Shown: positions 4,596 to 55,685 of the stretch, in pieces
How the letters are laid out: each line of letters begins with the position of its first letter
Position numbering within the stretch: position 1 is the first letter of the stretch
DNA from: an uncultured Gammaproteobacteria bacterium
GTDB lineage: Bacteria > Patescibacteriota > Patescibacteriia > Buchananbacterales > UBA6539
Direction of reading: 5' to 3'
Assembly: GCA_964535715.1 (NCBI GenBank)
Contig: CAZHUO010000004.1
Location: forward strand, 1 to 60,986
DNA: 60,986 nt
The notes under the pieces: generated by a model
Seen by the model: the letters and a program-made list of their open reading frames with translations, nothing else
Told to the model about the DNA's origin: nothing
Database searches by the model: none
Translations under genes and position numbers: made by a program

Positions 4596-5141
4596 ATGCC
4601 AAAACAAACATTACAACAAGGCCGCCGCTGGTATGTAATCCATACCTATTCTGGATATGAAGAAAATGTCAAGCGGAATTTGGAGCAAAGGATCGAATCA
4701 ATGGACATGGAGGATAAAATTTTTAATGTTTTAATACCGACTGAAAAGAAAATTAAAATTAAAAACGGCAAAAGAAAAGTCGTCACCGAAAAAATATTTC
4801 CCGGCTACGTCTTAGTAGAGATGGTTGTTGACGATAACTCCTGGTATGTTGTGCGGAATACTCCGAATGTCACCGGTTTTATCGGATCAGGAACAACTCC
4901 AACGCCGATTTCCGATTCTGAAATAAAAAATCTCCAAAAGAGAATGGGCGTTGAAGAACCGACTTTCAAAATTGATGTTACACTCGGCTCGCCGGTAAAA
5001 ATCATTGACGGACCTTTCAAAGGCTATGAAGGAAAAGTGAATAAAATTGATGAGGACCGCGGAAAAATTAAGGTTTTGGTTAACATGTTCGGCCGGGAAA
5101 CTCCAGTTGAATTGGATTTTCTTCAAGTCAAAAAAATCTAG
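4596..5141 (+). CDS. nusG: transcription termination/antitermination factor NusG
   Basis: WYVIHTYSGYE NGN start, KOW motif (GPFKGYEGKV), and secE-nusG-rplKA synteny. Confidence 0.95.
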   Translation: MPKQTLQQGRRWYVIHTYSGYEENVKRNLEQRIESMDMEDKIFNVLIPTEKKIKIKNGKRKVVTEKIFPGYVLVEMVVDDNSWYVVRNTPNVTGFIGSGTTPTPISDSEIKNLQKRMGVEEPTFKIDVTLGSPVKIIDGPFKGYEGKVNKIDEDRGKIKVLVNMFGRETPVELDFLQVKKI

Positions 5142-5177: not shown

Positions 5178-5603
5178 ATGGCAAAAAAAGTAAAAACAGT
5201 TATAAAATTACAAATTCCTGCCGGGCAAGCAAATCCGGCTCCTCCGGTCGGACCAGCCTTGGGTCAGCATGGCTTGAACATTGCGGAATTTTGTGCAAAA
5301 TTCAACGAAGCAACCAGGCAGAATATGGGAGAAATCACGCCAATTGAAATCACCGTTTTTGAAGACAGAACATATACTTTCGTCACAAAAACTCCGCCGG
5401 CTGCGGAATTACTCAAAAAAGCCGCCGGCATTTCAAAAGGCTCAGGACAGTCGCTGAAGAAAAAAGTCGGAAAAGTAACCAAGGCTCAAATAAAAGAAAT
5501 AGCTGAAAAGAAAATGGCGGATTTAAATGCCAAGGATGTTCAGGGCGCCTGCCGAATTATTGAAGGCACTGCAAAACAAATGGGACTTGAAATAATCGGA
5601 TAA
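5178..5603 (+). CDS. rplK: 50S ribosomal protein L11
   Basis: [23 protein letters not shown] signature. Confidence 0.97.
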
Positions 5604-5687
5604 ATCTTAATAATTAAATATTTGCGGGACCCCAGCTCCGGGGATTTACCGCGAATCTGCCAAAACGGCAGAAGTTGGAGAAAAAAT

Positions 5688-6368
5688 ATGAAACGTTCAA
5701 AACGCTACCAAGAAATGGCAAAAAAAGTGGACAAAAATAAAAACTATCCGATTGAACAGGCGATAAGCCTTGTCAAAGAAACCGGAACCGCCAAATTTGA
5801 CGCATCGGTTGAAGTCCACATTAAGCTTGGCATTAATCCCAAAAAAAGCGATCAGCAAGTCAGAACCGCTTTTACCCTGCCAAACGGCACCGGAAAAACC
5901 AAAATAATCGCCGCTTTTGTTTCGCCTGACAAGGAAAAAGAAGCAAAAGAAGCCGGAGCAGACATTGTCGGCGGCCAAGATTTAATTGATAAAATAAAAA
6001 GCACCGGAAAAATCGAGTTTGAGCTGACCGTATCAACGCCCGATATGATGCCTAAACTTGCAATAATTGCTAAAACATTGGGACCAAGAGGCCTAATGCC
6101 TTCGCCGAAAAACGAAACAATCACCACTAATCTTAAAAAGACGATCGGCGAACTTAAAAAAGGCAAAGTCGACTTTAAAAGCGACGACACCGGAAATGTC
6201 CACCAGACAATAGGCAAAGTTTCTTTTGATCAAAAAAAGCTTTTGGAAAACTATAACGCTCTAATAGATGCCCTTAAAAAGGCGAAACCGTCAACGGCCA
6301 AAGGAACTTTCATCCAAGGAATCAGCATTGCTTCCTCAATGGGTCCTGGAATTAAAATTCAACTTTAA
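5688..6368 (+). CDS. rplA: 50S ribosomal protein L1
   Basis: L1 sequence starting MKRSKRYQEMAKKV. The start was moved to ATG 5688, which is preceded by GGAG. The 5622 extension in the track crosses a hairpin leader. Confidence 0.93.
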   Translation: MKRSKRYQEMAKKVDKNKNYPIEQAISLVKETGTAKFDASVEVHIKLGINPKKSDQQVRTAFTLPNGTGKTKIIAAFVSPDKEKEAKEAGADIVGGQDLIDKIKSTGKIEFELTVSTPDMMPKLAIIAKTLGPRGLMPSPKNETITTNLKKTIGELKKGKVDFKSDDTGNVHQTIGKVSFDQKKLLENYNALIDALKKAKPSTAKGTFIQGISIASSMGPGIKIQL

Positions 6369-14847: not shown

Positions 14848-17031
14848 TTAATTTTTAGCTAAAAAATCAGAAATGATTTTTTTTATTTTAGAAAAATTAT
14901 TTTCCCAAATTATTTCCTTATTACGCTTAAACCAGGTTATTTGGCGCTTGGCAAAATCTTTTATTGCCCGGCTTAAAAATATAAGCAATTTTTCCTTGCT
15001 GATTTTTTGTTTCAAATATTTTGAAACAAAGCGATATTCCAAACCAAATTCATCAAGCCTTTTATAGCTTAATCCCCTCTTTTTCAAATCTTTTATTTCA
15101 TCAATCATACCCTCATTAAATATCCGATGTTCCAGGCGCCTGTCAATTCTTCGGTGTAAAACATTTTTTGGATAAGTAACGCCGATTTGCAAAAAATCGT
15201 ATGGCGGCTTTAAATTAGCCGGCCGCTGCGACTTAGGTATTCCGGTCTCGTAATAAATTTCCAAAGCCCGCTGAACTCTCCGCCGGTTATTTTTGTCGAC
15301 TACTGAATAAGTTTTAAAATCAATAACCTTTAACCTTGTCAATAACTGTTTTAAAGTTAGCCTGTCAAGTTTTTTTCTGATTCTTGATTCATGATTCTTA
15401 ATTCTTGATTCTTGCAAATTGTAGCCATCAACTAATGCGGAAATATACAAGCCGGTGCCGCCGCAGACAATCGGCAGCTTGCCCCGCTTCAAAATATCTT
15501 CGATTGCCAAAATCGCCTGCTTTTGCCATTTTGCCATCGTAAATTGCTCTTTAGGATCAGCCACATCTATAAGATGATAAGGAATTCCATCAGATTTAAC
15601 TTTTAACTTTTGACTTTTGAGATTTATTTCATACTCAGCCAGATCCTTGCCAGTTCCTATATCCATTCCCTGATAAACTTGCCGCGAATCAGCCGAAATT
15701 ATTTCGCCATTGAATTTTTTGGCCAGCTTGACTGCAATCTTAGTTTTACCCGAAGCGGTAGTCCCTAAAACGACTAAAACTTTAGGCAACTCGCCGCTTA
15801 AACCCCATTCATAACAACCTATCACTTTAACCAAAATAATTTTGCCGGTGTAATCAGCTCCTGATTTAAATTTTATATTTTTGAAATTATAAGTTTTTCC
15901 AAAACAATAACCGTTTTTGCATTTATCAACCAGCACTTCAATTGTTTTACCAACCAGCCGCTTATTTTTTTGCAGTGCGGTCTTTTTTAATATGTCCGTC
16001 AAAATCCTTTCGCGGTTTCTTTTTTCTTCCTTTGAAACGTTATTAGAGAACTTTGCCGAAGCTGTACCTATTCGGGGCGAATATTGGGCGATATAGGCCA
16101 TGTCAAATTTTACCTCTTTGAAAAGTTTCGCTGTATTTAAAAATTGCTTTTTTGTCTCTCCCGGAAAGCCAACAATAATATCAGTTGATACTGTAATTTC
16201 GGCAATAACTTTTCTGACTTTTTCAACTAATTTTATGTAATGTCGTACGGTATAATGCCGGTTCATAAGGCGCAATATTTCATCATCTCCCGATTGAACC
16301 GGCAAATGAAGGTACGGTATCAAATGTTTTGCCAAAGCCATTTCTGCTATAAGACTGTCTGACATATCTTTTGGATGGCTGGTAGCAAAAGAAAGCCAGT
16401 AATTTCCCGGGATACTATCAACCATATTCAATAATTTTGGAAAGTCAATATTTTGGTCTTTGTAGCTGTTTACATTTTGTCCTGATAAAATTATTTCTTT
16501 GTAGTCTTTTAAGACAAGTTCGCGACATTCTTTTAAAATATCAGAAGCTTTTCTAGAAACTTCCCTCCCGCGAGTATAAGGGACAACGCAATACGAGCAA
16601 AAATTGTTGCAGCCGGTCATTATCGGAACATAGGCTTGAAATTTTGATTGGTAGCTTGGGTGAATTTTGAAATAATTATCAGCTTTTAGCTGATAGCTTT
16701 TAGCTTTTAGAAGTTTCGGTAGAGTAGCTAAGTCCTTAATATCAAAAATAATGTCAAAAATTTGATTCATTTTAGATAAATCTGATTTTAAAACACAGCC
16801 GGATAAAACCGTAATTAAAGGCCGGCTTTTTTTGATTTGTTGAAATTTTTGTTTCAGGCCGAAAATCCGGTCAATTGCCGACTGGCGAACCGAACAGGCC
16901 AAAACAATAATTAAATCAGCCTCAGATTGATTTGAGGTTTTTTCATAATTTAAATTTTTTAAAACTGCCTGGATTTTTTCGGAATCGGACTGATTAAATT
17001 GACAGCCAAAAACAATTGAGTAATATTTCAT
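14848..17031 (-). CDS. miaB-miaA: fusion protein: MiaB-type radical-SAM methylthiotransferase (N) plus tRNA dimethylallyltransferase MiaA (C)
   Basis: Residues 1-415 carry N-terminal Cys10/46/79, the CNNFCSYC radical-SAM motif and a TRAM domain. Residues 416-727 begin VVLGTTASGKTK...ADSRQVYQGMDIGTGK (MiaA). Confidence 0.9.
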   Translation of the reverse strand: MKYYSIVFGCQFNQSDSEKIQAVLKNLNYEKTSNQSEADLIIVLACSVRQSAIDRIFGLKQKFQQIKKSRPLITVLSGCVLKSDLSKMNQIFDIIFDIKDLATLPKLLKAKSYQLKADNYFKIHPSYQSKFQAYVPIMTGCNNFCSYCVVPYTRGREVSRKASDILKECRELVLKDYKEIILSGQNVNSYKDQNIDFPKLLNMVDSIPGNYWLSFATSHPKDMSDSLIAEMALAKHLIPYLHLPVQSGDDEILRLMNRHYTVRHYIKLVEKVRKVIAEITVSTDIIVGFPGETKKQFLNTAKLFKEVKFDMAYIAQYSPRIGTASAKFSNNVSKEEKRNRERILTDILKKTALQKNKRLVGKTIEVLVDKCKNGYCFGKTYNFKNIKFKSGADYTGKIILVKVIGCYEWGLSGELPKVLVVLGTTASGKTKIAVKLAKKFNGEIISADSRQVYQGMDIGTGKDLAEYEINLKSQKLKVKSDGIPYHLIDVADPKEQFTMAKWQKQAILAIEDILKRGKLPIVCGGTGLYISALVDGYNLQESRIKNHESRIRKKLDRLTLKQLLTRLKVIDFKTYSVVDKNNRRRVQRALEIYYETGIPKSQRPANLKPPYDFLQIGVTYPKNVLHRRIDRRLEHRIFNEGMIDEIKDLKKRGLSYKRLDEFGLEYRFVSKYLKQKISKEKLLIFLSRAIKDFAKRQITWFKRNKEIIWENNFSKIKKIISDFLAKN

Positions 17032-18019: not shown

Positions 18020-18120
18020 ACAAATACGAATAATTACGAATATACAAATTGGAATGCCAAGTTATTCGTATATTCGTATGATTCGTATTCGTAGTAATAT
18101 TAAAAATTCGTATTTCGTAG
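18020..18120. repeat. tacgaata/attcgta palindromic element (copy 1)
   Basis: Core 18035-18078 is tacgaatatacaaat-tggaatgccaag-ttattcgtatattcgta. A near copy lies at 59054-59098. Confidence 0.7.
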
Positions 18121-18125
18121 TGATA

Positions 18126-19904
18126 TTATTTTCTATCCTTAATCTCTTTTACAACTCTTTCAATAAACTTTTGCCGGCTGATTGCTTCCATTTCCTTCTG
18201 CCCCCTGATTCTAACACTTAAGTCTTTGCTTTTTGCTTCTTTTTCGCCGATGACCAAAGTATAAGGAACCTTGGCTTTTTCGCTTTTTCTGATTTTATAG
18301 CCGACAGTCTCGTTCAAGTTGTCAACAAAAACCCTAATTCCCTGATCTTTCAATTCAACGGCAAGCTTTTGGGCGTCTTGAATAAAATTTGCAGACACCG
18401 GCACGACTTGTACTTGAACTGGCGAAAGCCAAACCGGAAAAGCACCCGCATAATGCTCAATTAGAAAGCCAATCAACCTTTCGTGAGTGGAAAGGGGCGC
18501 ACGGTGAATGCAGATTGGCGTTTTTTCTTTTCCATCACTATCAACAAAAACCAAGCCGAATCTTTCGGGAACCGCAAAATCAACCTGATTTGTCGCTAAG
18601 GTAAACTCACGGCCGATTGCGCTGTATATCTGCACATCAATTTTAGGCCCGTAAAAAGCCGCTTCGTTAGACACTTCAATAAATGGCACTTTATTTTTGG
18701 TCAAAATACTCCTGATCATTTTTTCAGTTTTCAGCCAAAGTTTTTCATTATCAATATATTTTTTTCCCAAACCTTCCTTGCCGTGAGTACTGAATCTCAT
18801 GACATATTTTTCAATATTAAATATTTTAAAATATTTCAAATACAGGTCAACCACCGCCATAAATTCGGATTCAAACTGTTCTTCAGTGCAATAGATATGG
18901 GCATCGTTCATTTGCATCGACCTTACTCTCATTAAGCCGAAAAGTTCGCCGCTTTTTTCATACCGGTAGCAGGTGCCGTATTCGGCCAAGCGAATCGGCA
19001 AATCGCGGTAGCTTCTCATTTCAGAAGCGAAAATCAAATGGTGATGCGGGCAATTCATCGCCTTTAAATAATATTTGGTCTTTTTTCCATCTTCATCCAT
19101 AATCATCGGCGGGAACATGCTTTCTTCGTAATATGGCAAGTGACCGGAAGTTTTGTACATTTCTTCTTTAGCCAAGTGCGGAGTTTTTACCCGGCTATAT
19201 CCGCCAGCTTCTTCGGCTTCTTTTGCCAATTTTTCGATTTCTTCAATTATTATTGCGCCGTTTGGCAGCCATAAGGGAAGACCCGGGCCAACCATATCAT
19301 GAAATGAAAAAATCTTCAGTTCTTTGCCAATTTTCCGATGATCGCGCTTTTCGGCCTCAGCCAGCATCTTTAAATACTCATCAAGCTCCTTTTCTGAAAA
19401 AAATGCCGTTCCGTAAATTCTTTGCAGCATTTTGTTTTTTTCATCTCCCCGCCAGTAGGCGCCGGCGATTTTTTGGATTTTTACGGCGCCGATTTCTTTG
19501 GTGGATTTGACATGGGGACCTGCGCACAAATCAACAAATTTCTTTTTGCCATCTGGCATTTCCATCCGGTAAAAACTTAGTTTTTTTTCCCCTTCTTTCT
19601 TTAAGTCCTCGGCCATTTCCAGCTTGTAAGGCTGTTTTTTTGTTTTTAAATACTTTATTGCATCTTCAACTTTTACTTCGTATTTTTCAAATTTCTGGTT
19701 TTGCTTGATAATCTGCTTCATGAGTTTTTCAATTTTGACCAAATCATCCGCTGAAAAAGTTTTGCCGCCTAAGTCAAAATCATAATAAAAGCCGTCACTA
19801 ATGGCCGGGCCGATTGCCAGCTTGGCATCGGGAAAAAATTCTAAAACCGCCTGGGCCATTACATGGCTTGCGGAATGCCTGATTGTTTCTAAGTCTTTGG
19901 ACAT
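18126..19904 (-). CDS. thrS: threonine--tRNA ligase
   Basis: Editing-domain HxxxH motif (RHSASHVMAQA), class II core, and a C-terminal anticodon-binding domain. Confidence 0.95.
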   Translation of the reverse strand: MSKDLETIRHSASHVMAQAVLEFFPDAKLAIGPAISDGFYYDFDLGGKTFSADDLVKIEKLMKQIIKQNQKFEKYEVKVEDAIKYLKTKKQPYKLEMAEDLKKEGEKKLSFYRMEMPDGKKKFVDLCAGPHVKSTKEIGAVKIQKIAGAYWRGDEKNKMLQRIYGTAFFSEKELDEYLKMLAEAEKRDHRKIGKELKIFSFHDMVGPGLPLWLPNGAIIIEEIEKLAKEAEEAGGYSRVKTPHLAKEEMYKTSGHLPYYEESMFPPMIMDEDGKKTKYYLKAMNCPHHHLIFASEMRSYRDLPIRLAEYGTCYRYEKSGELFGLMRVRSMQMNDAHIYCTEEQFESEFMAVVDLYLKYFKIFNIEKYVMRFSTHGKEGLGKKYIDNEKLWLKTEKMIRSILTKNKVPFIEVSNEAAFYGPKIDVQIYSAIGREFTLATNQVDFAVPERFGLVFVDSDGKEKTPICIHRAPLSTHERLIGFLIEHYAGAFPVWLSPVQVQVVPVSANFIQDAQKLAVELKDQGIRVFVDNLNETVGYKIRKSEKAKVPYTLVIGEKEAKSKDLSVRIRGQKEMEAISRQKFIERVVKEIKDRK

Positions 19905-19907
19905 ATT

Positions 19908-19942
19908 TTAGGAATTAGGAATTAGGAATTAGGAATTAGGGT
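19908..19942. repeat. heptamer tandem repeat (ttaggaa x4 plus ttagggt) abutting the thrS start
   Basis: Read directly. It begins 4 nt upstream of the thrS ATG, with no Shine-Dalgarno sequence. Confidence 0.9.
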
Positions 19943-19944
19943 TT

Positions 19945-19990
19945 TGTCATTCTGAGCCTGCCAGCAAGCAGGGGTTTGTTTCAGAATCTC
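19945..19990. repeat. palindromic element tgtcattctgag...tttcagaatctc
   Basis: Outer arms attctga/tcagaat with an inner hairpin cctgc-cagcaa-gcagg. Same family as the first half of 11540-11612. Confidence 0.6.
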
Positions 19991-20012
19991 TTAATTCATA
20001 ATTCTTGATTCC

Positions 20013-20570
20013 TTATTCTTTATTCTTATTTTGCCATTCACTGCGCAATAAATCCATCCTAATCTGGTCATGGAAACATTTATTCAAATAGATTGCCTGC
20101 CTGATTCTACCAGCTTTTTTAAAACCAATTTTCTTATATGATTTTTCGCCCCTGACATTATAAGCGATATAACGCAAATAAATCATATGCAATTTCAATT
20201 TTTTAAAACCATAGTCAATTATTAATTTGCCGGCCTCAGTACCAAAGCCCTGCCCCCAATATTTTTTATCTCCAATAAAAATTCCATATTCGGCGTTTTT
20301 ATTTTCTTGGTCAATATTTTTCAAACTGACAGTCCCAATATGAACTCCGAAAGCGGTATCTATGGCAAAAGCCAGATTTTTTTTGTCTTTTTTATCCTCC
20401 ATCAGCCATTTACGCTCTTCTTTTAAAGTCGGCGGACCCTGGTGGTGCCAGCGGGATAAAAACTGAGTTAACTCCGGGTCGGCCAGCCAACGACAATAAT
20501 CGGCAGCGTCTTTTAATGACAACGGCCTTAGGGTTACGAGTTTGCCTTTTAGAATTACCTTGTTTTTCAT
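20013..20570 (-). CDS. GNAT family N-acetyltransferase (RimJ/RimL-like)
   Basis: 185 aa with WGQGFGTEA (Q/RxxGxG/A acetyl-CoA site). Confidence 0.85.
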   Translation of the reverse strand: MKNKVILKGKLVTLRPLSLKDAADYCRWLADPELTQFLSRWHHQGPPTLKEERKWLMEDKKDKKNLAFAIDTAFGVHIGTVSLKNIDQENKNAEYGIFIGDKKYWGQGFGTEAGKLIIDYGFKKLKLHMIYLRYIAYNVRGEKSYKKIGFKKAGRIRQAIYLNKCFHDQIRMDLLRSEWQNKNKE

Positions 20571-20572
20571 AT

Positions 20573-21090
20573 ACCGATGCTAATCTACTAATATATGCGA
20601 ATGATGCAAATAATTTATTACTCCTTTGGGTTTTAAATGTCTATCTCTAAAATTCACAAGAAGACCCAATTTTATTTCTTTAGCCCTTAGATATCTTTGC
20701 ATTTGATAATAATCATCCCGAGTGATAAAATTTTTGGCCTTGCATTCAATAATAATTTTATCTTCCACAATGAAATCGGCTATATTTCCGCCAATACAGT
20801 TGTCGTCATTATCAAATGATTCAAAATATATACTTACTTCTCGCTGATATTTTATGTTCGCATCTTTTATTAGTTGCTCTAACCTGTCACAATATTGTTT
20901 TTCTTTGACAAATCTTCCTAATTCATTATGAACTTAAAAGCACAAACCGGTGATTTGAAAAGAAAGTTGTGGAAATATTAGTTTTTGTTGCATATCAACA
21001 TAGCATTAATAATAAGAAGTGCTATGTTGATTTATATACTAAACTGCTATTCGTATCATTCGCATTTATTCGCATTCATTAGTATCGGCT
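20573..21090. mobile_element. inverted-repeat-bounded (IVS-like) element carrying a GxxExxY gene remnant
   Basis: The 45-nt arms are about 20573-20617 (ccgatgctaat...atgcgaatgatgcaaata) and 21047-21090 (its reverse complement, ...tattcgtatcattcgcat...attagtatcgg). The element fills the gap between the T-box terminator and the GNAT start. Confidence 0.5.
20580..20933 (-). pseudogene. GxxExxY-family (PD-(D/E)XK-like) protein, N-terminally truncated
   Basis: The frame is open from just after a TAA: VHNELGRFVKEKQY...ADFIVEDKIIIECKAK...LGLLVNF. There is no ATG, and the first usable start is GTG at 20768. Confidence 0.55.
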
Positions 21091-21271
21091 AAAAAAAGAC
21101 CAACCAGAAAAATTATCTGCTTGGGACTCCGTCTATAATAGCGGGGCGGTTCCACCCAAGTTCCCAAAGCCGACAATGCGTTGGGCACTTTAGTTTATTC
21201 AATTTATCGAAAGCTTAGCCGATTTGGTCCAAACGGAGTAAAGTTGGTGACTTTACCAATCACTTTGCGAT
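21091..21271 (-). promoter_or_regulatory. T-box riboswitch leader (candidate Thr specifier ACU)
   Basis: T-box core GGGUGGAACCGC (21157-21146). Antiterminator CUUGGG-[UGGAACC]-GCCCCG...CGGAGU-CCCAAG. Competing terminator CCAAGCAG...CUGGUUGG followed by UCUUUUUUU. GAAUAAACUA (ACU at 21194-21192), an AGUGA box and an F-box-like CCGUUU are also present. Confidence 0.75.
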
Positions 21272-21277
21272 ATTAAT

Positions 21278-21306
21278 AGTATAAAGCTAATAGCAGGTGA
21301 TGTCAA
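21278..21306 (-). promoter_or_regulatory. near-consensus sigma70 promoter driving the T-box leader
   Basis: Minus strand: TTGACA, 17 nt spacer, TATACT. Confidence 0.6.
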
Positions 21307-21367
21307 GAAAACAATTTTTGAATTGCTGAATTGTTTAATTGTTAAATTGTTCCATTGCTTAATTGCT

Positions 21368-21422
21368 TAATTGTCCTATTGAGATTGCTTCGTCGCTACG
21401 CTCCTCACAATGACCGGAGTTA
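21368..21422 (+). other. short solo attC-like hairpin site
   Basis: TAAT-t-gtcctattgag ... ctcacaatgac-cgga-GTTA, with loop cgtcgctacgctc. Confidence 0.35.
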
Positions 21423-21458
21423 TTAAACTAATTAAGAAAATCAAGTGTTTTCATGATA

Positions 21459-21486
21459 TTGACAAATAAATATTATATGCTACAAT
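21459..21486 (+). promoter_or_regulatory. near-consensus sigma70 promoter, antisense to the recombinase operon 3' end
   Basis: TTGACA, 16 nt spacer, TACAAT, followed by the gtggtttataaaccac palindrome and ggtcttttt. Confidence 0.4.
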
Positions 21487-21554
21487 GATATTGAAAAAGG
21501 CTTTCGGCCGTGGTTTATAAACCACAATTTGGCGGAAGGTCTTTTTCGTTTATT

Positions 21555-21971
21555 TCATTTTTCGACGGGAAATGTCGAGATAAGCCATTTTTGTCCAGAT
21601 CTTTTATCCTCCTTTATCTGCACAAAAAATAAATCTTTATCTTTGGTTACACCAGCAAATCGATGAAAAATTTCTGAACTCTTATTGGGGTTTTCTTTAG
21701 ATACCGGTTCATATCGTGATTTTTGAATAAGCTCAATGGCACAAGGAAAATATTTAACGCGTCTTGTTTTATCAGCTAAACTTAATTTTTGATGCAAATG
21801 GTGCCAATATAAATCTAAAAATATTTTATCTTTATTAAAATAGGCTGATCTAACATAAGGCTTTCTTTTTGTTTTGATTTTAATTAATTTATAAAATACA
21901 AATGCTTTTTTATAAGATTCTGACCATTTTGTTCCGGCAACCTTACTTGTATTAGTTTGATATATCTTCAT
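21555..21971 (-). CDS. hypothetical protein co-transcribed with the recombinase
   Basis: 138-aa ORF starting 5 nt after the recombinase stop. No motif recognised. Confidence 0.6.
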   Translation of the reverse strand: MKIYQTNTSKVAGTKWSESYKKAFVFYKLIKIKTKRKPYVRSAYFNKDKIFLDLYWHHLHQKLSLADKTRRVKYFPCAIELIQKSRYEPVSKENPNKSSEIFHRFAGVTKDKDLFFVQIKEDKRSGQKWLISTFPVEK

Positions 21972-21975
21972 AATT

Positions 21976-22851
21976 CTACAATGGCGACTTAATCTGACTT
22001 AAAAACTTATTGGAAACTCTGGTATAAATCTGAGTAGTCGTCAGACTTTTATGGCCAAGCAAAGTCTGGATATAACGAATGTCTACCCCGTCTTCAAGCA
22101 GATGGGTGGCAAAGCTATGTCGCAGGCTATGGCAAGTTGCTGATTTTCTAATTTCGGCATTGGCCAAGGCTTGTTTGAAAATTTTTTCAACCGACCTTGC
22201 AGAAAGGTACAAATTATTATAACCGGAAAAAATGTATTGCCCAAATTCTTTTTGGCAAATGAAATTTTGCAGATCAGAGACAAGTCTTTCCGAAAATATC
22301 GTCTGTCTGTCTTTTCTGCCCTTCCCCTGCCTCACCCATAATATTTTATTTTCCAAATCAAAATCCTTGACTTTCAGCTTAACGACTTCAGATACTCTTA
22401 AGCCGGCAGAATACATTAAAGCCAAAATTAATTTGTGCTTTTTATTATTTACCACATCAAGGAGTTTTCCTATTTCAGCTTTAGACAAAACCACAGGCAG
22501 CTTTTTTTCGCCCTTTGGCAGGCGGAAACTATAATAAAACCGCCTTTTTTTAACCTGGCGGTAATAAAATTTTATGGCATTAAAAGCCAAGCGGGAAGTT
22601 GAAGCAGAAACCTTCCTTTTTTCCAACAAATACCACAGATAATCCTTAATATCTGAGGCAGTAATTGAGGTCGGATCTTTTTGACAGTACCTGATTAAAT
22701 CGGTATTATAAAATAAGTAGGCCTGAACGGTTTTTGGGCTAAAATTACGAATTTCCAGTTCTTTTTTTAGGGATCCCCGCACAAAAACACTATCGAATTT
22801 AATGTGTTCGGGTTTTTCCGCACTTTTTGTATGGGGTAAATCAAAAAACAT
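21976..22851 (-). CDS. tyrosine recombinase, IntI/Xer-like, without the IntI-specific insertion
   Basis: Catalytic set is present: AGLRVSE (R), GKGRKDR (K), [10 protein letters not shown] (HxxR), LLGH, QIYTRV (Y). The N-terminal [21 protein letters not shown] and LPVVLS resemble IntI1 (recalled from memory). Confidence 0.9.
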   Translation of the reverse strand: [291 protein letters not shown]

Positions 22852-28164: not shown

Positions 28165-29396
28165 GTGAATTGATGCCAATAAAAAAAATTTTCAATTTCG
28201 AAAAAGGAAGTTTGCAAAGTACTAAATGCACGCCAGGTGCTTTTACTTTTGTAACCGCAGGTACGGATTGGAAAACCCACAATGAATTCACTCATGAGAC
28301 AGAAGCTTTGATTTTGGCTGTAGCCGCTGCCGGATCATTAGGCCGTTGTCATTACATAAAAGGTAAATTTATCGCAAGCGACCTTTGCTTTATACTAACC
28401 CCAAAAAATAATGAATTATTACCAGTCGATTTAGAATTTTATCATCAACTTTTTAAAGTATTAAAGGACGACTTGGTCCAAAAAACAGCCACAGGAACAT
28501 CTAAACTATCAATTAACAGATCAAACTTTGGCAATTACAAAATTCCCTATTTTGACATATCGCATCAAAGAAAGTTTAAAAATATTTTAAATAAAATTAT
28601 CGATAAAAAAGAAAAGTTATTATCTTGCAGTAAAAACCAAGAAAATTTAATTGATTTTTTAAGAAAACAAGTTCTTCATGATGTGATTTCTGGTAATCTT
28701 ACTACTGATCAAAAAACAAAAAAATATACTATTGAATCTACAAGCGAGATGTTTGAAAAAATCAGAGAAGTAAGAGAAAAAATGATAAAAGACAAAAAGA
28801 TTAAAAAAGACAAACAACTTCCACCAATCTCAATGAATGAAGTGCCGTTCGAGATACGCTCACAATATTTATGGGCAAGAGTAGACAATTTATTTTTTAT
28901 CAAAAAAGGAGAAACGGGTATAAAAAAGGCCAATCCCGGAATTTATCCATTAGTTGTTACTGCCGAAGAGCGATTAACACATAATGTTTATGAAATTGAC
29001 GGCGAGGCTATTTTAATACCAATGGTTTCGTCTACGGGACACGGTCATGCATCACTTAAAAGAATTCACTTTCAAGATGGTAAATTTGCACTAGGCTCAA
29101 TCCTTTCAGCTTTAATACCAATTACTCCAGAGTTTATCTCTGCAAAATTTTACTACTATTTTTTAAACAACTACAGAAACCAATTAATCGTAAGTAGAAT
29201 GGGTGGAGCCGCAAATGTTGCACTTACGCAAAAAGCATTAAGAAGTATAATCGTTCCTGTATTACCAATAGAGGTTCAACAGAAAGCAGTTAGATTGTTA
29301 GAGTGCGCTAATTTAATAGAAGGAAAAATAAAACAAAACAAACAAGATGCAGAAATGCTGATGCAAAGTTTTTTGGTTGAGGCTTTTAAAAGTTAA
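28161..29396 (+). CDS. hsdS: Type I restriction-modification specificity subunit
   Basis: Two target-recognition halves separated by a coiled spacer, with an ATGA overlap onto hsdM. Confidence 0.85.
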   Translation: MSELMPIKKIFNFEKGSLQSTKCTPGAFTFVTAGTDWKTHNEFTHETEALILAVAAAGSLGRCHYIKGKFIASDLCFILTPKNNELLPVDLEFYHQLFKVLKDDLVQKTATGTSKLSINRSNFGNYKIPYFDISHQRKFKNILNKIIDKKEKLLSCSKNQENLIDFLRKQVLHDVISGNLTTDQKTKKYTIESTSEMFEKIREVREKMIKDKKIKKDKQLPPISMNEVPFEIRSQYLWARVDNLFFIKKGETGIKKANPGIYPLVVTAEERLTHNVYEIDGEAILIPMVSSTGHGHASLKRIHFQDGKFALGSILSALIPITPEFISAKFYYYFLNNYRNQLIVSRMGGAANVALTQKALRSIIVPVLPIEVQQKAVRLLECANLIEGKIKQNKQDAEMLMQSFLVEAFKS

Positions 29397-49897: not shown

Positions 49898-51418
49898 TTA
49901 TTCGCTGAAAACTATCGCTTCATAAGACATTGTCTGAATATCTTCGTTCTTGTAGCAATTTTTGTCTAAACCTCCTTTTAAGCAAAGGCTTTGAAAAAAT
50001 TGGGTCGGATCGGATAAATCTTCCCAAACCTGTGGCAGATAAGTCGCTCCCCTGTTTCCTTGGCGCAAAACAACGCCTTTTTTGAATTTAATAATTTCAT
50101 CAATTGTATCGGTTTTTGGCGGGGTCAAAACGGAAATTTCAATTTTAATATCTTTAAGTTCTGAAGATTCAACCGGCATAAAACGATTATCATGCGCTGC
50201 CGCTGAAATGGCATTGTCCCTGACCGCCTCAATCAAAGCTTCAATTGGCTCTATATAACCGATACACCCCCTAAGCTGGCCGTCTTTAGTCAAAGTGACA
50301 AACACTCCCCGCTTTTCCAATAACTTTTGATAATCAGTCTTTGGCTCATAAGTTTTGCCAGTTTTAACATATTGTTCCAAGGCAGTTCTGGCAACTTTCA
50401 GCAATTCGCTTTTTTCCGCCTCACTGTATTCATCTTTATTGTTTTCTTGATTTATTGCCTGCCCGCCGAAGCCCACTGGGCGTAGGTGGGATTTCTTGAT
50501 TTCTTGAAAAAACCCTATCGCCGAATAGCCAACCACGGCCTTTTTATCACCTGTTACGTCGCCGGAATTCATATACTCCAAAAGTTTTGGCACCAAGCCA
50601 TTCTGCCGGGCAAGTTCCAAAATTGAAGACACCGCCCAGGGCGCATCTATTTCGTCGTCTAATACATCTTCGCTATTTAAATCCAAAATATTCTGTATTG
50701 ATTTCTTGTCCAATTTAACCGCTTCATCATAAGGATGATAATGGGAAAGATCAAGACTGACAATCAAAACGGTCTGAGAATCCAAATAGAGGTTTAAAAC
50801 TGAGGCAAAATCAGATCTCTGTTTAGAATCCAATTGACCGACAATTATTGGAATGATTTTTATACTGGGCAGAACTGTTTGTAAAAATGGAATTTCAAGC
50901 TCCAAGGAATGCTCGGGCTGATGAATTTTATCATTAATTTCAAAATTATTTTCTTTGGCTAATTCCGAATTCATTGCCGCAATATCAACTGAGCCCAAAG
51001 GCGTCTGCCAAATACCAGCGCCTGATAAAAATAAGCCGGAAAGCGGAAAGTGATGGGACGGACCGATTATTATTGCCTGTTTAATATCTTTTCCTAAAAG
51101 CGGTTTGAAACCATGGGCTGCCACCCCGCCGGAGTAAGCGTAGCCTGCGTGAGGCACAATTATAATTTTTGGACTACCGGTTGCCGCCTGGCTTGAAGCT
51201 TCGGCTAAAAAATCATTAATCATCTTGCTTAATTCCGTTTTATCAGCCGGATAAAAAGAGCCGGCCACCGCGGGCTTGCGGATTATTTCTTTTTTGGTCA
51301 TATTTATATTTTCCTTCTGACTTATTTTTGAAGTATTTAAATTGTATTTCAATATTAATGCGAGAATAATAACCAAAAAAATAAGTAATAGAAATAGGCT
51401 GATATACTTTTTTGGCAT
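49898..51418 (-). CDS. fusion: AmmeMemoRadiSam system protein B (Memo-like) plus protein A (AMMECR1-like), with an N-terminal TM anchor
   Basis: PAVAGSFYP...VPHAGYAYSG (Memo), then RGVFVTLTKDGQLRGCIGYIEP (AMMECR1). The start was moved to ATG 51418, because the upstream 77 codons translate a repeat element and overlap the helicase gene. Confidence 0.8.
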   Translation of the reverse strand: MPKKYISLFLLLIFLVIILALILKYNLNTSKISQKENINMTKKEIIRKPAVAGSFYPADKTELSKMINDFLAEASSQAATGSPKIIIVPHAGYAYSGGVAAHGFKPLLGKDIKQAIIIGPSHHFPLSGLFLSGAGIWQTPLGSVDIAAMNSELAKENNFEINDKIHQPEHSLELEIPFLQTVLPSIKIIPIIVGQLDSKQRSDFASVLNLYLDSQTVLIVSLDLSHYHPYDEAVKLDKKSIQNILDLNSEDVLDDEIDAPWAVSSILELARQNGLVPKLLEYMNSGDVTGDKKAVVGYSAIGFFQEIKKSHLRPVGFGGQAINQENNKDEYSEAEKSELLKVARTALEQYVKTGKTYEPKTDYQKLLEKRGVFVTLTKDGQLRGCIGYIEPIEALIEAVRDNAISAAAHDNRFMPVESSELKDIKIEISVLTPPKTDTIDEIIKFKKGVVLRQGNRGATYLPQVWEDLSDPTQFFQSLCLKGGLDKNCYKNEDIQTMSYEAIVFSE

Positions 51419-51439
51419 AAGCGTTTCTCTTTTCTGTAA

Positions 51440-51535
51440 TTGTGAAATCCCAGACTTTCGCAAAAGGCTAAGACCGAAGCAATCTAGATTGCTTCGTCGT
51501 CGCTTCGCTCCTCCTCGCAATGACAAAACGTTATA
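51440..51535. repeat. solo hairpin / half attC-like element
   Basis: cgaagcaatc-tag-attgcttcg, then gtcgcttcgctcctcctcgcaatgac-aaaac-GTTA. The TTA doubles as the helicase stop codon. Confidence 0.55.
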
Positions 51536-54500
51536 GTGATCTGAATTCGCAAATATTCTTAAAATCGCACCACTGACAGAGCATACTGGGCTTGGGCAAA
51601 AATTCTCCTTTTTTGATTTCCAAAATTGTATTGATAATCTTTTTTTCAATCGCTTTAAGCTCTTTTTCCGTACCTAAAAATGATACTTTATTTCCGGCTT
51701 CAATATAATAAAAAGAAAGATTTTTAACTTTTTCGCCCAAAACCTGCTGGGCGGCCAGCTGGTAAATTAAAAGCTGTTCTTTGTCTTCGGCGGTAAAATT
51801 CTTTTCAGTCCGGCCAAAGCCTGTTTTATAGTCAATAATTTCTATCCCGCCATCTAAAATATCTATTCGGTCAATTACACCCTTGATTGTATACTCCTCT
51901 CCGTCCGCTTCAATTTTTAAATTAAACGGACGCTCCAAATATTTTGGTATTGGAATATTTTTTTCAATTTTTTTATAATACTCAGTTAAAGCCTTTTTGC
52001 CTTTCTGTTTATATTCATCGTGTTCTTCGCGGCTTTGGTACCAATCATCAATCCAATTTTTTTCATAGATCCCCAAAAGCTCCTCTAGTTTTACTTTGGT
52101 CTTCTGTTTTCTGTTTTCTGTTTTCTGATCTCTAATCTTATTGCCAAACAAATCAACCTGCTTAACATTTTCTCTTTCCAAAACTAACTCAAAAAATTGC
52201 TGTAAAGTCGCATGAATCGTTTTACCAAATGAAAAAACCGATTTTCCCCGAACCGGCACTTTCAAAATATGGGCAAACCGGTACTGATAAGGACAGCTTT
52301 CAAAAGCCCGAAGCTGGGTAAAAGAAAAGCGGGTCGGCACAATCGGCAAAAACTCTTGTTGTGTAATCTCAGTATTAAATTTTTTTGTCCCTTCAGCAAG
52401 CAAGCCCTCGCCTTTATCAGGTTTTTTGTCTTCTTTAACAGCAAAGCCGATATCTTTAAGTTCGCATAGAAAACGGGATATTTTTTTCTTACGCGCGCCG
52501 CCGTAGTCAGATGCAGTTGTAAAAAATAAGCCAGTTTTGGCGCGCGTCATGGCAACATAAAAAAGACGGCGTTCTTCCTGCAGGTGAGCATCGCCAGAAG
52601 GCAAAATTTCTTTTATCAAGGCTTCGGGCAAGGCAATTTGATCTGATCGGTCACTAATTGGAAAACGGCGGTCAACCAAGCTGACGATAAAAACATATTT
52701 GAATTCCAAGCCCTTGGCTCCATGGACAGTCATAATTTTTACGCTGTCAGGGCCTTCATCCATATTATTCTGCAAAGAACCGGCTTCACCGGCTTCCAGC
52801 TCAAGCTCTATTAATCTCAAAAAACTTTTAACGGATTTGTCCTCACTGGAATTTTCAAAGTCAGTGATTTTTTTATAAAACTGATTTAAATAGTTTACCG
52901 CTTGCTGAGATTCTATTGAATCGTTCTTGGTTAATTTTTGCAAATAGCCGGAGTCTTCTAAAAAAGCAACAACAATTTGACCGACTGTTTTTTCCTTAAT
53001 TAAAACGCTATGGCTTTCAATCAGCTTAATAATATTTTTTAACTTTTCACGGACTTCTGACTCAGTATTTTGAGAAATTATCGCATCTTTTAAAGCCTGA
53101 TAAATTGAAATTCCTTTGCGGCTCGCCCAATAATTCAAAGTATTGATTACTGAAAAATCAAGCTCAAAAACTTCAAAACCAAGTACTCGGTACATTGCCG
53201 AACTTTCCCGGTAGTTATCCAAAAGCTTCAAGTAGGCCAAAACATCTAAAATCACGGGCTTGCCATAAAGCCCGCGCGAAGCTAAAAACTGATATGGAAT
53301 TTGGGTTTGAGAAATCGCATTGACAAAATAATTCGCCACTTCGTTAGTCCGAGCCAATATCGCAAAATCCGACCAAGCGATTTCTTTGTTTTTTTCTTTC
53401 AGTTCCGCAATTTGCTTAAGCGTGCCCCTAACTTCATCATCAGCCGTATCAAAAGCCAAATGGGTAATTATGCCTTTTTCTTTATTTTGAGCAGCCAATT
53501 TCTTTGTAAATTTTCGTTTTTCTGTTTTCTGATTTCTGTTTTCTGATTCTAACTTACATTCCAGCCTGTCTGGATTATTCTGCTGAATAAATTTATATGA
53601 CAAATCAAGGATTTCTTGAATCGAACGGTAATTTTTATTCAAAAAAATTTCTTCGGCTTTGGGATAGTCTTTTTTAAATTCCAAAATATTAGAGACTGAG
53701 GCTCCCCTGAATTTATAAATTGAATTATGAACAACAATTTCATCAGCGATAAAATTATGAGTGGTCTTAACCTCTAAATCATAAACTATAACATTTTTTT
53801 CTATATTTTCGGCTTTATTAATTACTCTGTCATAGACCACGCCATTCTTATTCATCACAGGCAAATACTGACCAACCAATACATTTTTTGCCGGAATTAC
53901 CAAAGCTTTTCTGGTTTGAATATTTTCCTGTCCTAATTTCGCACTAACTTCCAAAATTCCGCCGGTAATTTTTTCGATCCTAAGTGCAATCCGACCTAAT
54001 TTTTTTAAATCAATGCTTTCGAGACGCAAACGATAGCCCTTTTTGGCCTTTCGTAATATAAATCCGGCTTTCTTTAATTTTTTGATGATGTTTAAATCTG
54101 AACTCTCCAAACCTAAATAATGAGTGACTTTAGGACTTACTAACTTATTGTCTTTGGCATACTTACTCCGATAACGGCGATAACACATTTCTAAATTTAC
54201 TTTTACCCTTAATTTCTCTCCTCTGTTAACCGCGGCTAAAGAGTAATGATGGGTACTTAAATCAAAATTTAAATCATTAGCCAGTTTTCTAGCATTACTT
54301 TCACTATCAATTTCCTGATAAAGCTTAGACAACCATTTATCTTTTACTACTACTTTGTTTCGTGCCTTAAAGCAAACGGTTGGAATATTATATTTTAGTG
54401 AATATAAAGTTTCATAAAATCTAGCCTCTGTTTCACCAAGACAAGTTTTGATCCCTAAAATCCGATCAGCCGATCTTTCCAGTCGAAGCCGCATTGACAA

Positions 54501-55685
54501 ATCATTAGTCACACCTATTCGCCAGCCTAAATTTTTGCGGTGCATTAAGTAAACATAATAATATTTTTTATCATCAATCGCCGGAACAAAACAAAACATT
54601 TTATGATTATCAGTAACTTTAATTTGATGGCCATTAGCTGTTTTAAATGTTATAAACTTTACATCCTTTTTATTCTTAAAAACTTTAGTAACTGGCGCAT
54701 AGCTTAAATAACCTCGACCAACTGCCGTTGACACTTTCTGTCCAACTTTTATATCCTTAATTTTCTTTCTGCCTTTATCAGTTTCAACTAAAGAGTCAGG
54801 GGGTAGACATTGATCATCATCCCCGACAACCGTAATATTATTCTGCGGCTTTGCCAAAAGCTTAACCAGCTCATATTGGGCGTAATTCGTGTCCTGAAAT
54901 TCATCAACTAAAATATACTTAAACTGCTGGCGGTATTTTGCCAAAATCGCCGGCCGATCCTTAAAAAGCTTAAGGCAATAATTTATCAAATCGCCAAAGT
55001 CCATTGCGCTATTATCAACAAGCAACTGCTGATAAATATGATAAGCATCGGCAACTTCCTGAGTTTTTTTAATTTCCTGGGCAACTAATTCCTTTTTTTC
55101 CTTCTTGCTTAGTGATTTTAATATTTCCGGCTCCAACAAGTCTTTAATAAAATCATTTGAATCGGAATTTAATTTCAAGTCCTTGGCGTATTTCAAATAA
55201 TCCGAGGAACTTACAACTTCATCTTTGGCGCGAGAAAACAATTTAATCAAGGCATGAATAAATTTTGTCGGATTACCCAGCGGTCGATAGTATTCTAAGT
55301 TGAATTTATTCAAATTCTGCCTAATTAACAGCCACTGCTGGGTTTGGTTCAATAATTTAAAATCATTGGGAATTCCGATTTCCAGGGCATGATTTTTTAA
55401 AATTTTTTCGGCAAAGGAATGAAAAGTCGAAATCCACAAATCCACATAGCCAAGCGGCAAAAGCTTATCAACTCGCTCTTCCATTTCACCGGCGGCTTTG
55501 TCGGTAAATGTCAAAGCCAATATTTCATCGCTTTTGGCTTTGCCTTCGGTAATCAGCCAGGCAATACGCTGGGCAATTACCGTAGTCTTGCCGGTGCCGG
55601 CTCCGGCCACGATTAAAAGAGGCCCCTTGTTAAAAATAACTGCCTTTTTTTGTTCAGGATTCAAGGTTTTCAGGTTAATTTCCAT
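51531..55685 (-). CDS. UvrD/PcrA-type SF1 helicase fused to a C-terminal PD-(D/E)XK (Cas4/AddB-like, 4-Cys) nuclease, interrupted by an intein
   Basis: GAGTGKT, DEFQDTN, VGDDDQ|intein|SIYKFRGA, and VAMTRAK. C-terminal motifs are ESCPYQYRF, IDYKTG and CQWCDFKNIC. Confidence 0.9.
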   Translation of the reverse strand: MEINLKTLNPEQKKAVIFNKGPLLIVAGAGTGKTTVIAQRIAWLITEGKAKSDEILALTFTDKAAGEMEERVDKLLPLGYVDLWISTFHSFAEKILKNHALEIGIPNDFKLLNQTQQWLLIRQNLNKFNLEYYRPLGNPTKFIHALIKLFSRAKDEVVSSSDYLKYAKDLKLNSDSNDFIKDLLEPEILKSLSKKEKKELVAQEIKKTQEVADAYHIYQQLLVDNSAMDFGDLINYCLKLFKDRPAILAKYRQQFKYILVDEFQDTNYAQYELVKLLAKPQNNITVVGDDDQCLPPDSLVETDKGRKKIKDIKVGQKVSTAVGRGYLSYAPVTKVFKNKKDVKFITFKTANGHQIKVTDNHKMFCFVPAIDDKKYYYVYLMHRKNLGWRIGVTNDLSMRLRLERSADRILGIKTCLGETEARFYETLYSLKYNIPTVCFKARNKVVVKDKWLSKLYQEIDSESNARKLANDLNFDLSTHHYSLAAVNRGEKLRVKVNLEMCYRRYRSKYAKDNKLVSPKVTHYLGLESSDLNIIKKLKKAGFILRKAKKGYRLRLESIDLKKLGRIALRIEKITGGILEVSAKLGQENIQTRKALVIPAKNVLVGQYLPVMNKNGVVYDRVINKAENIEKNVIVYDLEVKTTHNFIADEIVVHNSIYKFRGASVSNILEFKKDYPKAEEIFLNKNYRSIQEILDLSYKFIQQNNPDRLECKLESENRNQKTEKRKFTKKLAAQNKEKGIITHLAFDTADDEVRGTLKQIAELKEKNKEIAWSDFAILARTNEVANYFVNAISQTQIPYQFLASRGLYGKPVILDVLAYLKLLDNYRESSAMYRVLGFEVFELDFSVINTLNYWASRKGISIYQALKDAIISQNTESEVREKLKNIIKLIESHSVLIKEKTVGQIVVAFLEDSGYLQKLTKNDSIESQQAVNYLNQFYKKITDFENSSEDKSVKSFLRLIELELEAGEAGSLQNNMDEGPDSVKIMTVHGAKGLEFKYVFIVSLVDRRFPISDRSDQIALPEALIKEILPSGDAHLQEERRLFYVAMTRAKTGLFFTTASDYGGARKKKISRFLCELKDIGFAVKEDKKPDKGEGLLAEGTKKFNTEITQQEFLPIVPTRFSFTQLRAFESCPYQYRFAHILKVPVRGKSVFSFGKTIHATLQQFFELVLERENVKQVDLFGNKIRDQKTENRKQKTKVKLEELLGIYEKNWIDDWYQSREEHDEYKQKGKKALTEYYKKIEKNIPIPKYLERPFNLKIEADGEEYTIKGVIDRIDILDGGIEIIDYKTGFGRTEKNFTAEDKEQLLIYQLAAQQVLGEKVKNLSFYYIEAGNKVSFLGTEKELKAIEKKIINTILEIKKGEFLPKPSMLCQWCDFKNICEFRSL
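53724..54809 (-). mobile_element. intein (362 aa) in helicase motif III
   Basis: It starts CLPPDSLVETDKG and has block B VTDNHKMF. It ends VYDLEVKTTHNFIADEIVVHN and is followed by Ser. The flanks rejoin to GDDDQSIYKFRGA. Confidence 0.88.

Follow-up and report, generated by a model that had tools for sequence, protein, structure and literature searches.

T-boxes are a model system for the recognition of a whole tRNA by another RNA. Their parts are not all universal, since glycyl T-boxes naturally lack Stem II as well as a Stem IIA/B pseudoknot. T-boxes that act on transcription are described as needing a long Stem I platform for tRNA to be captured fast enough, and truncated Stem I variants are known only for actinobacterial ileS, where they act translationally and require the Stem II S-turn (PMC7583486). 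These 'ultrashort' Stem I T-boxes stand upstream of actinobacterial ileS in M. smegmatis and M. tuberculosis (Sherwood et al. 2015, cited through bioRxiv 10.1101/2023.02.28.530422 and PMC7583486). The class is reported to be confined to ileS and translational (bioRxiv 10.1101/2023.02.28.530422) and to depend on the Stem II S-turn (PMC7583486). The element considered here is a short leader upstream of a GNAT gene and thrS on contig CAZHUO010000004.1 (assembly GCA_964535715.1), whose 60,986 nucleotides (nt), analysed as a whole, are called the window. The contig carries the NCBI name of an uncultured Gammaproteobacteria bacterium and is placed by GTDB in the Patescibacteriota. With a probability of roughly 0.85, the leader is a transcription-attenuating, tRNA-Thr(GGU)-specific T-box which controls GNAT-thrS in Patescibacteria (the candidate phyla radiation, CPR) and belongs to a compact class with its own decoding domain.

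A compact leader and its relatives

All coordinates of leader parts refer to the minus strand of the window. The leader is preceded by a sigma-70-type promoter (TTGACA at 21306-21301, a 17-nt spacer, and TATACT at 21283-21278), which matches 11 of 12 positions and tops all promoter-like sites on this strand within 19800-22000. The T-box core, a 12-mer (GGGUGGAACCGC; GGGTGGAACCGC), is present without mismatch at 21157-21146. When up to one mismatch is allowed, the window holds two matches against 0.19 expected, and the second (29201-29212) lies inside an open reading frame (ORF) of 411 amino acids (aa). Compared with the 14-nt T-box consensus AGGGUGGNACCGCG, the window sequence uGGGUGGAACCGCc fits 12 of 13 specified positions at face value. 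The antiterminator (21160-21120) is built from helix A1, in which CUUGGG (21160-21155) pairs with the A1' strand CCCAAG (21125-21120), the bulge UGGAACC (21154-21148), and helix A2 (GCCCCG...CGGAGU, 21147-21126), which has one C.A mismatch. This structure is the minimum-energy fold of its segment (-11.6 kcal/mol) and leaves the 7-nt bulge unpaired. An intrinsic terminator follows at 21124-21091, where CCAAGCAG (21124-21117) and CUGGUUGG (21107-21100) form a stem around a 9-nt loop and are followed by UCU7. The stem has one G.G mismatch, the fold reaches -9.5 to -12 kcal/mol, and the U7 tract occupies 21097-21091. Antiterminator and terminator are mutually exclusive because the A1' strand is re-used by the terminator.

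The 5' half of the leader is closed by a 5-bp helix, P1, in which AAAGU (21266-21262) pairs with GCUUU (21214-21210). Within it stands the 5' junction strand GAUUG (21261-21257), whose AUUG is part of a conserved AGNG-AUUG, followed by the Stem I hairpin (GUAAAG at 21256-21251, loop UCACCAA at 21250-21244, CUUUAC at 21243-21238). The loop carries the Thr codon ACC (21248-21246), the putative specifier, and then a purine (A at 21245). A variable hairpin, hp2 (CCGUUUGGACCAAAUCGG, 21236-21219), has no conserved sequence in the related leaders and precedes the 3' junction strand CUAA (21218-21215). An A-rich linker (21209-21186) ends in AAGUG, that is, in RAG-type purines, ahead of Stem III (CCCAA...UUGGG, 21185-21163; -11 kcal/mol). 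The single-sequence fold of the whole leader gives a 5' structure other than the consensus, and comparative data are therefore needed.

The first intact gene past the leader encodes a GNAT protein (20013-20570, minus strand; Pfam Acetyltransf_3), and thrS, the presumed regulatory target, follows on the same strand (18126-19904; 592 aa; Pfam tRNA_SAD, tRNA-synt_2b and HGTP_anticodon). On the minus strand, no further promoter-like site matching at least 9 of 12 positions was found between the terminator and GNAT, and no terminator-like site between GNAT and thrS. The two genes are probably co-transcribed. Much of what the initial annotation had described is thus borne out, namely the promoter, the T-box core, the antiterminator with its UGGAACC bulge, the terminator with U7 that overlaps it through CCCAAG, a leader length of about 180 nt, and GNAT followed by thrS.

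Among 185,579 species-representative genomes, the ThrS relatives of the window are at most 65% identical to it. Most of the Chloroflexi among them have a T-box core 100-250 nt 5' of thrS. Three loci retrieved by ThrS and the T-box core only (L009, L010, and L040, the last from Candidatus Paceibacterota) were found to have short leaders, with approximately 100-125 nt from promoter to T-box, and to have in common with the window an AUUG-preceded 5' hairpin whose 7-nt loop reads YYACCAA. A metagenome scan with the pattern ATTG-N6-YY-ACCAA-N{60,90}-GGTGGNACC, in which no protein was imposed, yielded 120 loci. Stem I complementarity at 5 or more of the 6 positions was seen in 57 of 118 pattern matches, compared with about 3% expected by chance, and every one of the 57 has A at the unconstrained N of the bulge. 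Two of these hairpin-forming matches (L099 and L161) were rejected as chance matches in coding sequence. In about 52 of the 55 pattern-retrieved leaders thrS lies downstream (tblastn, 37-66% identity to the window ThrS), mostly 80-300 nt away, and in the other 3 the contig ends before thrS could appear. In total, at least 61 distinct leaders belong to the family.

A homology search placed the closest ThrS relative at 82% identity, in a 'Patescibacteria group bacterium' by NCBI naming; the next matches, with 64-71% identity, belong to Falkow-, Staskawicz- and Paceibacterota. The contigs which encode the relatives at 82%, 71% and 70% were retrieved by protein only, and all carry the compact leader with the loop CUACCAA. 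Named ThrS proteins of family loci belong to Candidatus Kaiserbacteria, Nomurabacteria/Parcubacteria, Paceibacterota and Patescibacteria. Going by these protein names, the compact leader family is spread across CPR lineages. The leader is absent at seven other ThrS relatives of approximately 61-67% identity (L005-L008, which are the closest GTDB ThrS relatives, and L211-L213), and therefore it is not universal in this ThrS clade. A further CPR ThrS relative (L214, 64% identical) has a different T-box 5' of thrS (2750-2990), with a longer and more canonical Stem I that contains AGAGA and the distal-loop-like GGCUGAAAG. Canonical-like and compact Thr T-boxes therefore both exist in CPR. Compact leaders with other codons were not found in about 0.7 Mb of flanking CPR DNA, which is a weak test. 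No paper in the open-access literature was found to join the T-box with CPR, Patescibacteria, Parcubacteria or Saccharibacteria, and the compact Thr T-box class is widespread and apparently undescribed.

From 5' to 3', the family order is promoter, P1 of 4-6 bp, G-AUUG, Stem I, variable hairpins, CUAA and the P1 3' strand, followed by an A-rich linker, Stem III, the T-box, the antiterminator and the terminator. Most members have a TTGACA...TAnnnT promoter 10-15 nt 5' of P1. AUUG is present in all seven leaders found without imposing it (the window, L009, L010, L040, L205, L207 and L210), and the G before it is at least 90% conserved. Stem I has 6 bp and a 7-nt loop, which reads CUACCAA in 56 of 61 leaders and YYACCAA in 7 of 7 that were retrieved independently of the loop sequence. 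The variable region spans 2-44 nt, with one or two predicted hairpins and without conserved sequence. The linker ends in RAG-type purines (AAGAGYG or AAGUG), [AG]AGNG being present in 46 of 57 linkers. In one subclass (L086, L096, L143, L150, L169, L181 and L198) Stem III is absent; the linker AAGUGAAACUUC leads directly into GGGUGGAACCGUC, and there are approximately 90 nt from P1 to the T-box.

Covariation argues for both helices of the 5' half. P1 is paired at 83-88% across 57-61 leaders, compared with 27-42% for controls in which the partner was slid by 1-3 columns, and compensatory changes occur in all 5 P1 pairs and all 6 Stem I pairs. In a MAFFT alignment (57 sequences) 91% of cells were paired, where shuffled sequences reached 55% and slid partners 27-42%, and the covariation score was 0.96 versus 0.25; in the model-fitted alignment A3 (61 sequences) 93% of cells were paired. 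The Stem I percentage is partly circular, as the leaders had been filtered on complementarity in Stem I, whereas P1 and CUAA were never imposed in the search pattern or the filter. The four positions of CUAA are conserved in 58-61 of 61 leaders. The bulge UGGA is present in all 61, although its N was left free in the pattern. Moreover, a hairpin with a U-tract stands within 220 nt in 61 of 61 leaders, and in 54 of them the 5' arm of the terminator contains or adjoins the A1 3' strand. Transcription attenuation is therefore the mode of the family.

Several landmarks of other T-boxes were missing. The Stem II S-turn signature GAA...AGUA was found in none of 57 leaders and the Stem IIA/B F-box CCGUU[AU] in one, the window itself; both are motif-level tests, and a non-canonical equivalent is possible. 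Neither a K-turn, a specifier loop, an AG bulge nor a distal-loop platform was found in family leaders. The tie to known T-boxes comes from the 3' half. Of 11 family members searched with the Rfam T-box model RF00230, 8 give a match (29-49 bits; E 5e-8 to 6e-3), and the alignment spans Stem III and the antiterminator alone, with Stem I deleted. Therefore the 3' half of the family is tied to the T-box family. A covariance model (R1) made from 50 related leaders, with the window excluded, recovers the window leader at 21268-21140 with 51 bits (E 3.5e-10), the sole significant match in 61 kb. R1 scores are bimodal, with members at 55 bits or more and chance pattern matches at 24 bits or less; the E-values are rough, as calibration was shortened. 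Systematic annotation would be possible with R1 and alignment A3, while the Rfam model misses compact leaders at its gathering threshold.

The relatives also decide what stands of the initial annotation's reading of the 5' half. Its overall proposal of a Thr-specific T-box leader agrees with the relatives that have thrS downstream and with the match to the window-free model. Its compact, non-canonical 5' half corresponds to the consensus 6-bp hairpin with a 7-nt loop inside P1, and the comparison of leaders that it called for found the element conserved upstream of GNAT-thrS in the nearest relative, L205. Its individual 5' motifs did not survive the family comparison. The ACU in GAAUAAACUA (21194-21192), proposed as specifier, sits in the non-conserved linker and is present in 18 of 57 relatives versus about 29 expected by chance. 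The alternative specifier GUC (21251-21249), which it placed in the loop of the 5' hairpin, is overlapped by one base by the ACC(A) now favoured in that loop. The F-box-like CCGUUU is inside the variable hairpin and is attributed to chance, and AGUGA, rather than being an AG-box, belongs to the 5' junction AGNG-AUUG, which is conserved.

Proposed mechanism and competing explanations

Transcription would begin at about 21271, approximately 7 nt past TATACT. The first ~57 nt would then fold into a P1-closed junction, in which the GAUUG and CUAA strands flank the 6-bp hairpin and one variable hairpin. The anticodon-loop-like 7-nt loop UCACCAA (consensus CUACCAA) would offer ACC, with the purine 3' of it, to a tRNA-Thr whose anticodon is GGU. 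About 90 nt further, past Stem III, the bulge UGGA would pair with the free NCCA end of the tRNA if it is uncharged. Uncharged tRNA-Thr would thus stabilise the antiterminator, and RNA polymerase would read into GNAT and thrS; with charged tRNA-Thr the antiterminator would not be stabilised, CCCAAG would join the terminator, and transcription would stop at U7 (21097-21091). The specifier, on comparative grounds, is ACC in the Stem I loop, and the link to Thr is likewise comparative. Direct support comes from the sequence elements, the alternative pairings, the covariation of P1 and Stem I, the thrS association and the homology of the relatives' 3' half to RF00230; we infer tRNA binding, the start and stop points and any tertiary role of GAUUG/CUAA. 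The bulge UGGA predicts a U73 discriminator in the cognate tRNA-Thr, a position which differs among species (PMC9976931). A more specific proposal is that these leaders are minimal transcriptional T-boxes of CPR, in which the P1-closed GAUUG/CUAA junction would be a tertiary motif of a new kind, stabilising the codon-anticodon helix in place of the S-turn 'purine string'. We give this proposal even odds; the junction may substitute for the S-turn.

A number of observations weigh against the T-box assignment for the window copy. RF00230 gave no match in the window at gathering, and a permissive search (E up to 10) of the 901-nt slice 20700-21600 returned only noise at the leader. ARAGORN predicted no tRNA gene for the window and, among approximately 200 related loci, none for tRNA-Thr. 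The terminator is separated from GNAT by ~520 nt, including a pseudogene cassette, and the thrS start lies ~1.19 kb 3' of it. The window copy has the lowest R1 score in the family (51 bits). In it, a rival fold of the 5' half, which would bury ACC, is more stable than the consensus by 4.9 kcal/mol, where the family median difference is 0. Its loop reads UC-ACC-AA instead of CU-ACC-AA, helix A2 contains a C.A mismatch, and the terminator is weak (about -9.5 kcal/mol versus a family median of -26). Contigs from four metatranscriptome-labelled runs show flat, DNA-like depth over both strands.

The RF00230 result is not a refutation, although the initial annotation had named a missing match as one. 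The model, whose gathering score is 93 bits, encodes a long Stem I, Stem II, the IIA/B pseudoknot and Stem III. Because it expects a long Stem I and II, and because even a canonical Chloroflexi thrS T-box found via ThrS homology falls below gathering (82.3 bits, E 2.6e-18), absence of a match is uninformative here. The check that the annotation proposed did return nothing for the window, yet 8 of 11 relatives match by their 3' half.

Most of the remaining points would also fit a leader that is a decaying relic of the compact Thr T-box family, uncoupled from its genes by the GxxExxY cassette and by weakened helices. The low model score, the competing 5' fold favoured by 4.9 kcal/mol, the weak terminator and the inverted-repeat cassette with its pseudogene fragment (20590-21070), which stands between terminator and GNAT, are all in line with decay. 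What makes a relic improbable is the comparison with L205, whose ThrS is 82% identical. There the -35 element, GAUUG-Stem I-loop, CUAA-P1, T-box and terminator are kept, as are the A2 mismatch, the same 'weak' terminator stem and even the mismatch within it, whereas in hp2, in the loops and in the spacer downstream no similarity above background is left. In addition, Stem III changed in a compensatory manner, from CCCAA/UUGGG in the window to CCCGA/UCGGG in L205. As the cores are kept and Stem III compensates while the flanks have diverged, selection on the element is indicated rather than decay, a signature of purifying selection. Furthermore, long spacers or selfish cassettes precede thrS in other members too (a GIY-YIG gene in L203 and a four-helix-bundle gene in L152), and no alternative promoter was predicted for the genes.

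Two other explanations retain only part of the T-box model. If the loop ACCA were a mimic in cis of the tRNA 3' end, its CCA would pair with the UGG of the bulge and the leader would regulate or inhibit itself; loop and bulge are indeed complementary over these three positions and both invariant in the family. However, the fourth position is an A.A mismatch (bulge UGGA, loop ACCA) in 61 of 61 leaders, and canonical Chloroflexi Thr T-boxes likewise read ACC-A. Such a mimic would also offer no reason for amino-acid specificity, whereas the strict association with thrS is explained by ACC being a Thr codon, and we regard a cis mimic as very unlikely. Still harder to credit is an operator for threonyl-tRNA synthetase (ThrRS) of the E. 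coli thrS type, in which the 5' hairpin would mimic the anticodon arm for autoregulation, the resemblance of the 3' part to a T-box being a coincidence. That E. coli operator is known to mimic the tRNA-Thr anticodon arm (PMC9976931), and here too an anticodon-loop-like 7-nt loop is located upstream of thrS. Nevertheless, what the loop displays is the codon ACC, whereas a Thr anticodon would read GGU, UGU or CGU. The element is also distant from any start codon, and the family keeps its T-box core, 7-nt bulge and competing terminator without variation. A Thr-specific T-box remains the preferred reading of the leader.

Neighbouring genes and other features

Most of the region between terminator and GNAT is an inserted cassette (20580-21070, minus strand) with 23-nt inverted repeats at 20590-20612 and 21048-21070. 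The repeats are 87% complementary and made of 'AATGCGAAT'-like units. The cassette consists of the C-terminal part of a GxxExxY (PD-(D/E)xK) gene, 62 aa long (20580-20768, minus strand; Pfam PDDEXK_3 and TIGR04256, matched by the C-terminal 47 residues only) and about 300 nt more, and it is absent from syntenic L205. Units like AATGCGAAT also stand 3' of thrS (18071-18089) and in the A2 loop of L114, another leader of the family. The pattern resembles a small mobile cassette, or a family of repeats, that inserts where these leaders tolerate it. L205 keeps the gene order of the window: the integrase gene and the leader are followed by repeats (~310 nt), then by GNAT and thrS, with the MiaB-MiaA fusion described below farther along. 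There a ~30-nt repeat (GAGATCCTTCGCTTCGCTCAGGATGAC) occurs three times (4895-4925, 5094-5125 and 5295-5330). One copy is inside the variable hairpin of the decoding domain, which position therefore tolerates insertions.

The order leader-GNAT-thrS is found in at least four lineages, among them the window, L205 (GNAT at 5387-5983), L143 and L181; the GNAT proteins of the last two are 36-40% identical to that of the window. The window GNAT is SpeG/RimJ/AAC(6')-like and weakly matches (E 4.6e-6) an NCBIfam model of isoleucyl-tRNA synthetase with a built-in GNAT domain. These observations suggest that GNATs of this type are, in a recurrent manner, linked in function to aminoacyl-tRNA synthetases. 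Speculatively, the protein may acetylate toxic aminoacyl-adenylate analogues or misacylated products. Other genes before thrS, named by reading the sequence, are an RdgB/Ham1-like gene in L136 and a MazG-like gene in L040. Immediately 5' of the thrS ATG in the window is a heptanucleotide tandem repeat (19908-19942; TAATTCC/CTAATTC, ~4.6 copies). Logan contigs from several wastewater runs break there and word depth approximately doubles, and the repeat is therefore multi-copy or variable in the community.

Directly 5' of the leader lies a gene for a tyrosine recombinase (integrase), in the region 21555-22851 (minus strand) of the window and 3263-4622 of L205. It is followed by a 138-aa ORF without assigned function in the window and by a GIY-YIG gene in L205. 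The integrase-leader neighbourhood is conserved but insertion-prone. On the plus strand, a near-consensus divergent promoter (21459-21486; TTGACA, 16 nt, TACAAT, with a TG extension) is directed into the 138-aa ORF (21555-21971), antisense to it. The promoter coincides with an Rfam match below threshold, to the leu/phe leader of Lactococcus (21427-21591, plus strand; 32 bits against a gathering score of 70, E 0.004). This match is probably due to chance, although an antisense or leader RNA is possible.

Further features of the window lie on the minus strand. An ORF of 727 aa (14848-17031) fuses a MiaB-like radical-SAM methylthiotransferase (UPF0004 and Radical_SAM) to MiaA (IPP transferase), two enzymes that act one after the other in modifying A37 of tRNA. 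L205 has the fusion too (711 aa), but the genes are separate in L207 and L210. At 51531-55685 a 1384-aa helicase-nuclease of the UvrD/AddA type (UvrD-helicase, UvrD_C, PDDEXK_1) is split by an intein (Hint, Intein_splicing) at residues ~291-654, and a 583-aa ORF at 49898-51649 fuses Memo-like and AMMECR1 domains. A tuf or ribosomal-protein cluster, which might adjoin a tRNA-Thr gene, was not found at the window ends.

Comparison with known T-boxes

Nearest to the family among known systems are the class I T-boxes, by their discriminator domain, and the ultrashort Stem I class. With canonical class I T-boxes (RF00230; tyrS and thrS of B. subtilis; Chloroflexi thrS in L012), the family shares the T-box sequence, the 7-nt bulge UGGNACC, the competing terminator, the RAG purines (for their role see PMC11297988) with Stem III, a specifier with a purine after it, and a target gene that encodes an aminoacyl-tRNA synthetase. 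Unlike class I, it has no K-turn, no internal S-turn specifier loop, no AG bulge/distal-loop platform for contact with the tRNA elbow and, at the level of motifs, no Stem II S-turn, Stem IIA/B pseudoknot or F-box. Its codon lies in a terminal loop, and the decoding and variable hairpins are enclosed by P1, the invariant GAUUG and CUAA. No counterpart of the P1-closed GAUUG/CUAA junction was identified in known T-boxes.

The glycyl (glyQS) T-boxes resemble the family in being transcriptional and in having neither Stem II nor the IIA/B pseudoknot, but they keep a long Stem I with platform and an internal specifier loop, both of which the family lacks. The E. coli thrS operator is likewise a structured leader 5' of thrS with an anticodon-arm-like hairpin. 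However, that operator binds ThrRS and displays an anticodon, whereas the family displays a codon together with a T-box discriminator domain and a terminator. Closer in form are the ultrashort actinobacterial ileS T-boxes: there too Stem I is short and its terminal loop holds the specifier, an elbow-binding platform is lacking, and the leader length is similar. The descriptions of that class set it apart from the family. It is linked to ileS and tRNA-Ile rather than thrS and ACC; it acts through translational control with a sequestrator and anti-sequestrator, while the terminators of the family stand 80 to more than 1000 nt 5' of the start codon. Moreover, it needs a Stem II S-turn along with a IIA/B pseudoknot, whereas the S-turn motif is found in 0 of 57 family leaders, which are closed by P1.

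The family therefore appears transcriptional, yet without a recognisable Stem I platform or an equivalent of the Stem II S-turn. If this is true, T-box regulation would extend to Patescibacteria, which have tiny genomes and few known regulators, and the decoding domain, at ~55-65 nt, would be the smallest natural one yet. It would also provide a compact scaffold for structural work and for the engineering of tRNA sensors. Set beside the classes described so far, the window element is a new architectural variant of the Thr-specific transcriptional T-box, one which would sense tRNA through a terminal-loop codon and a conventional T-box bulge.

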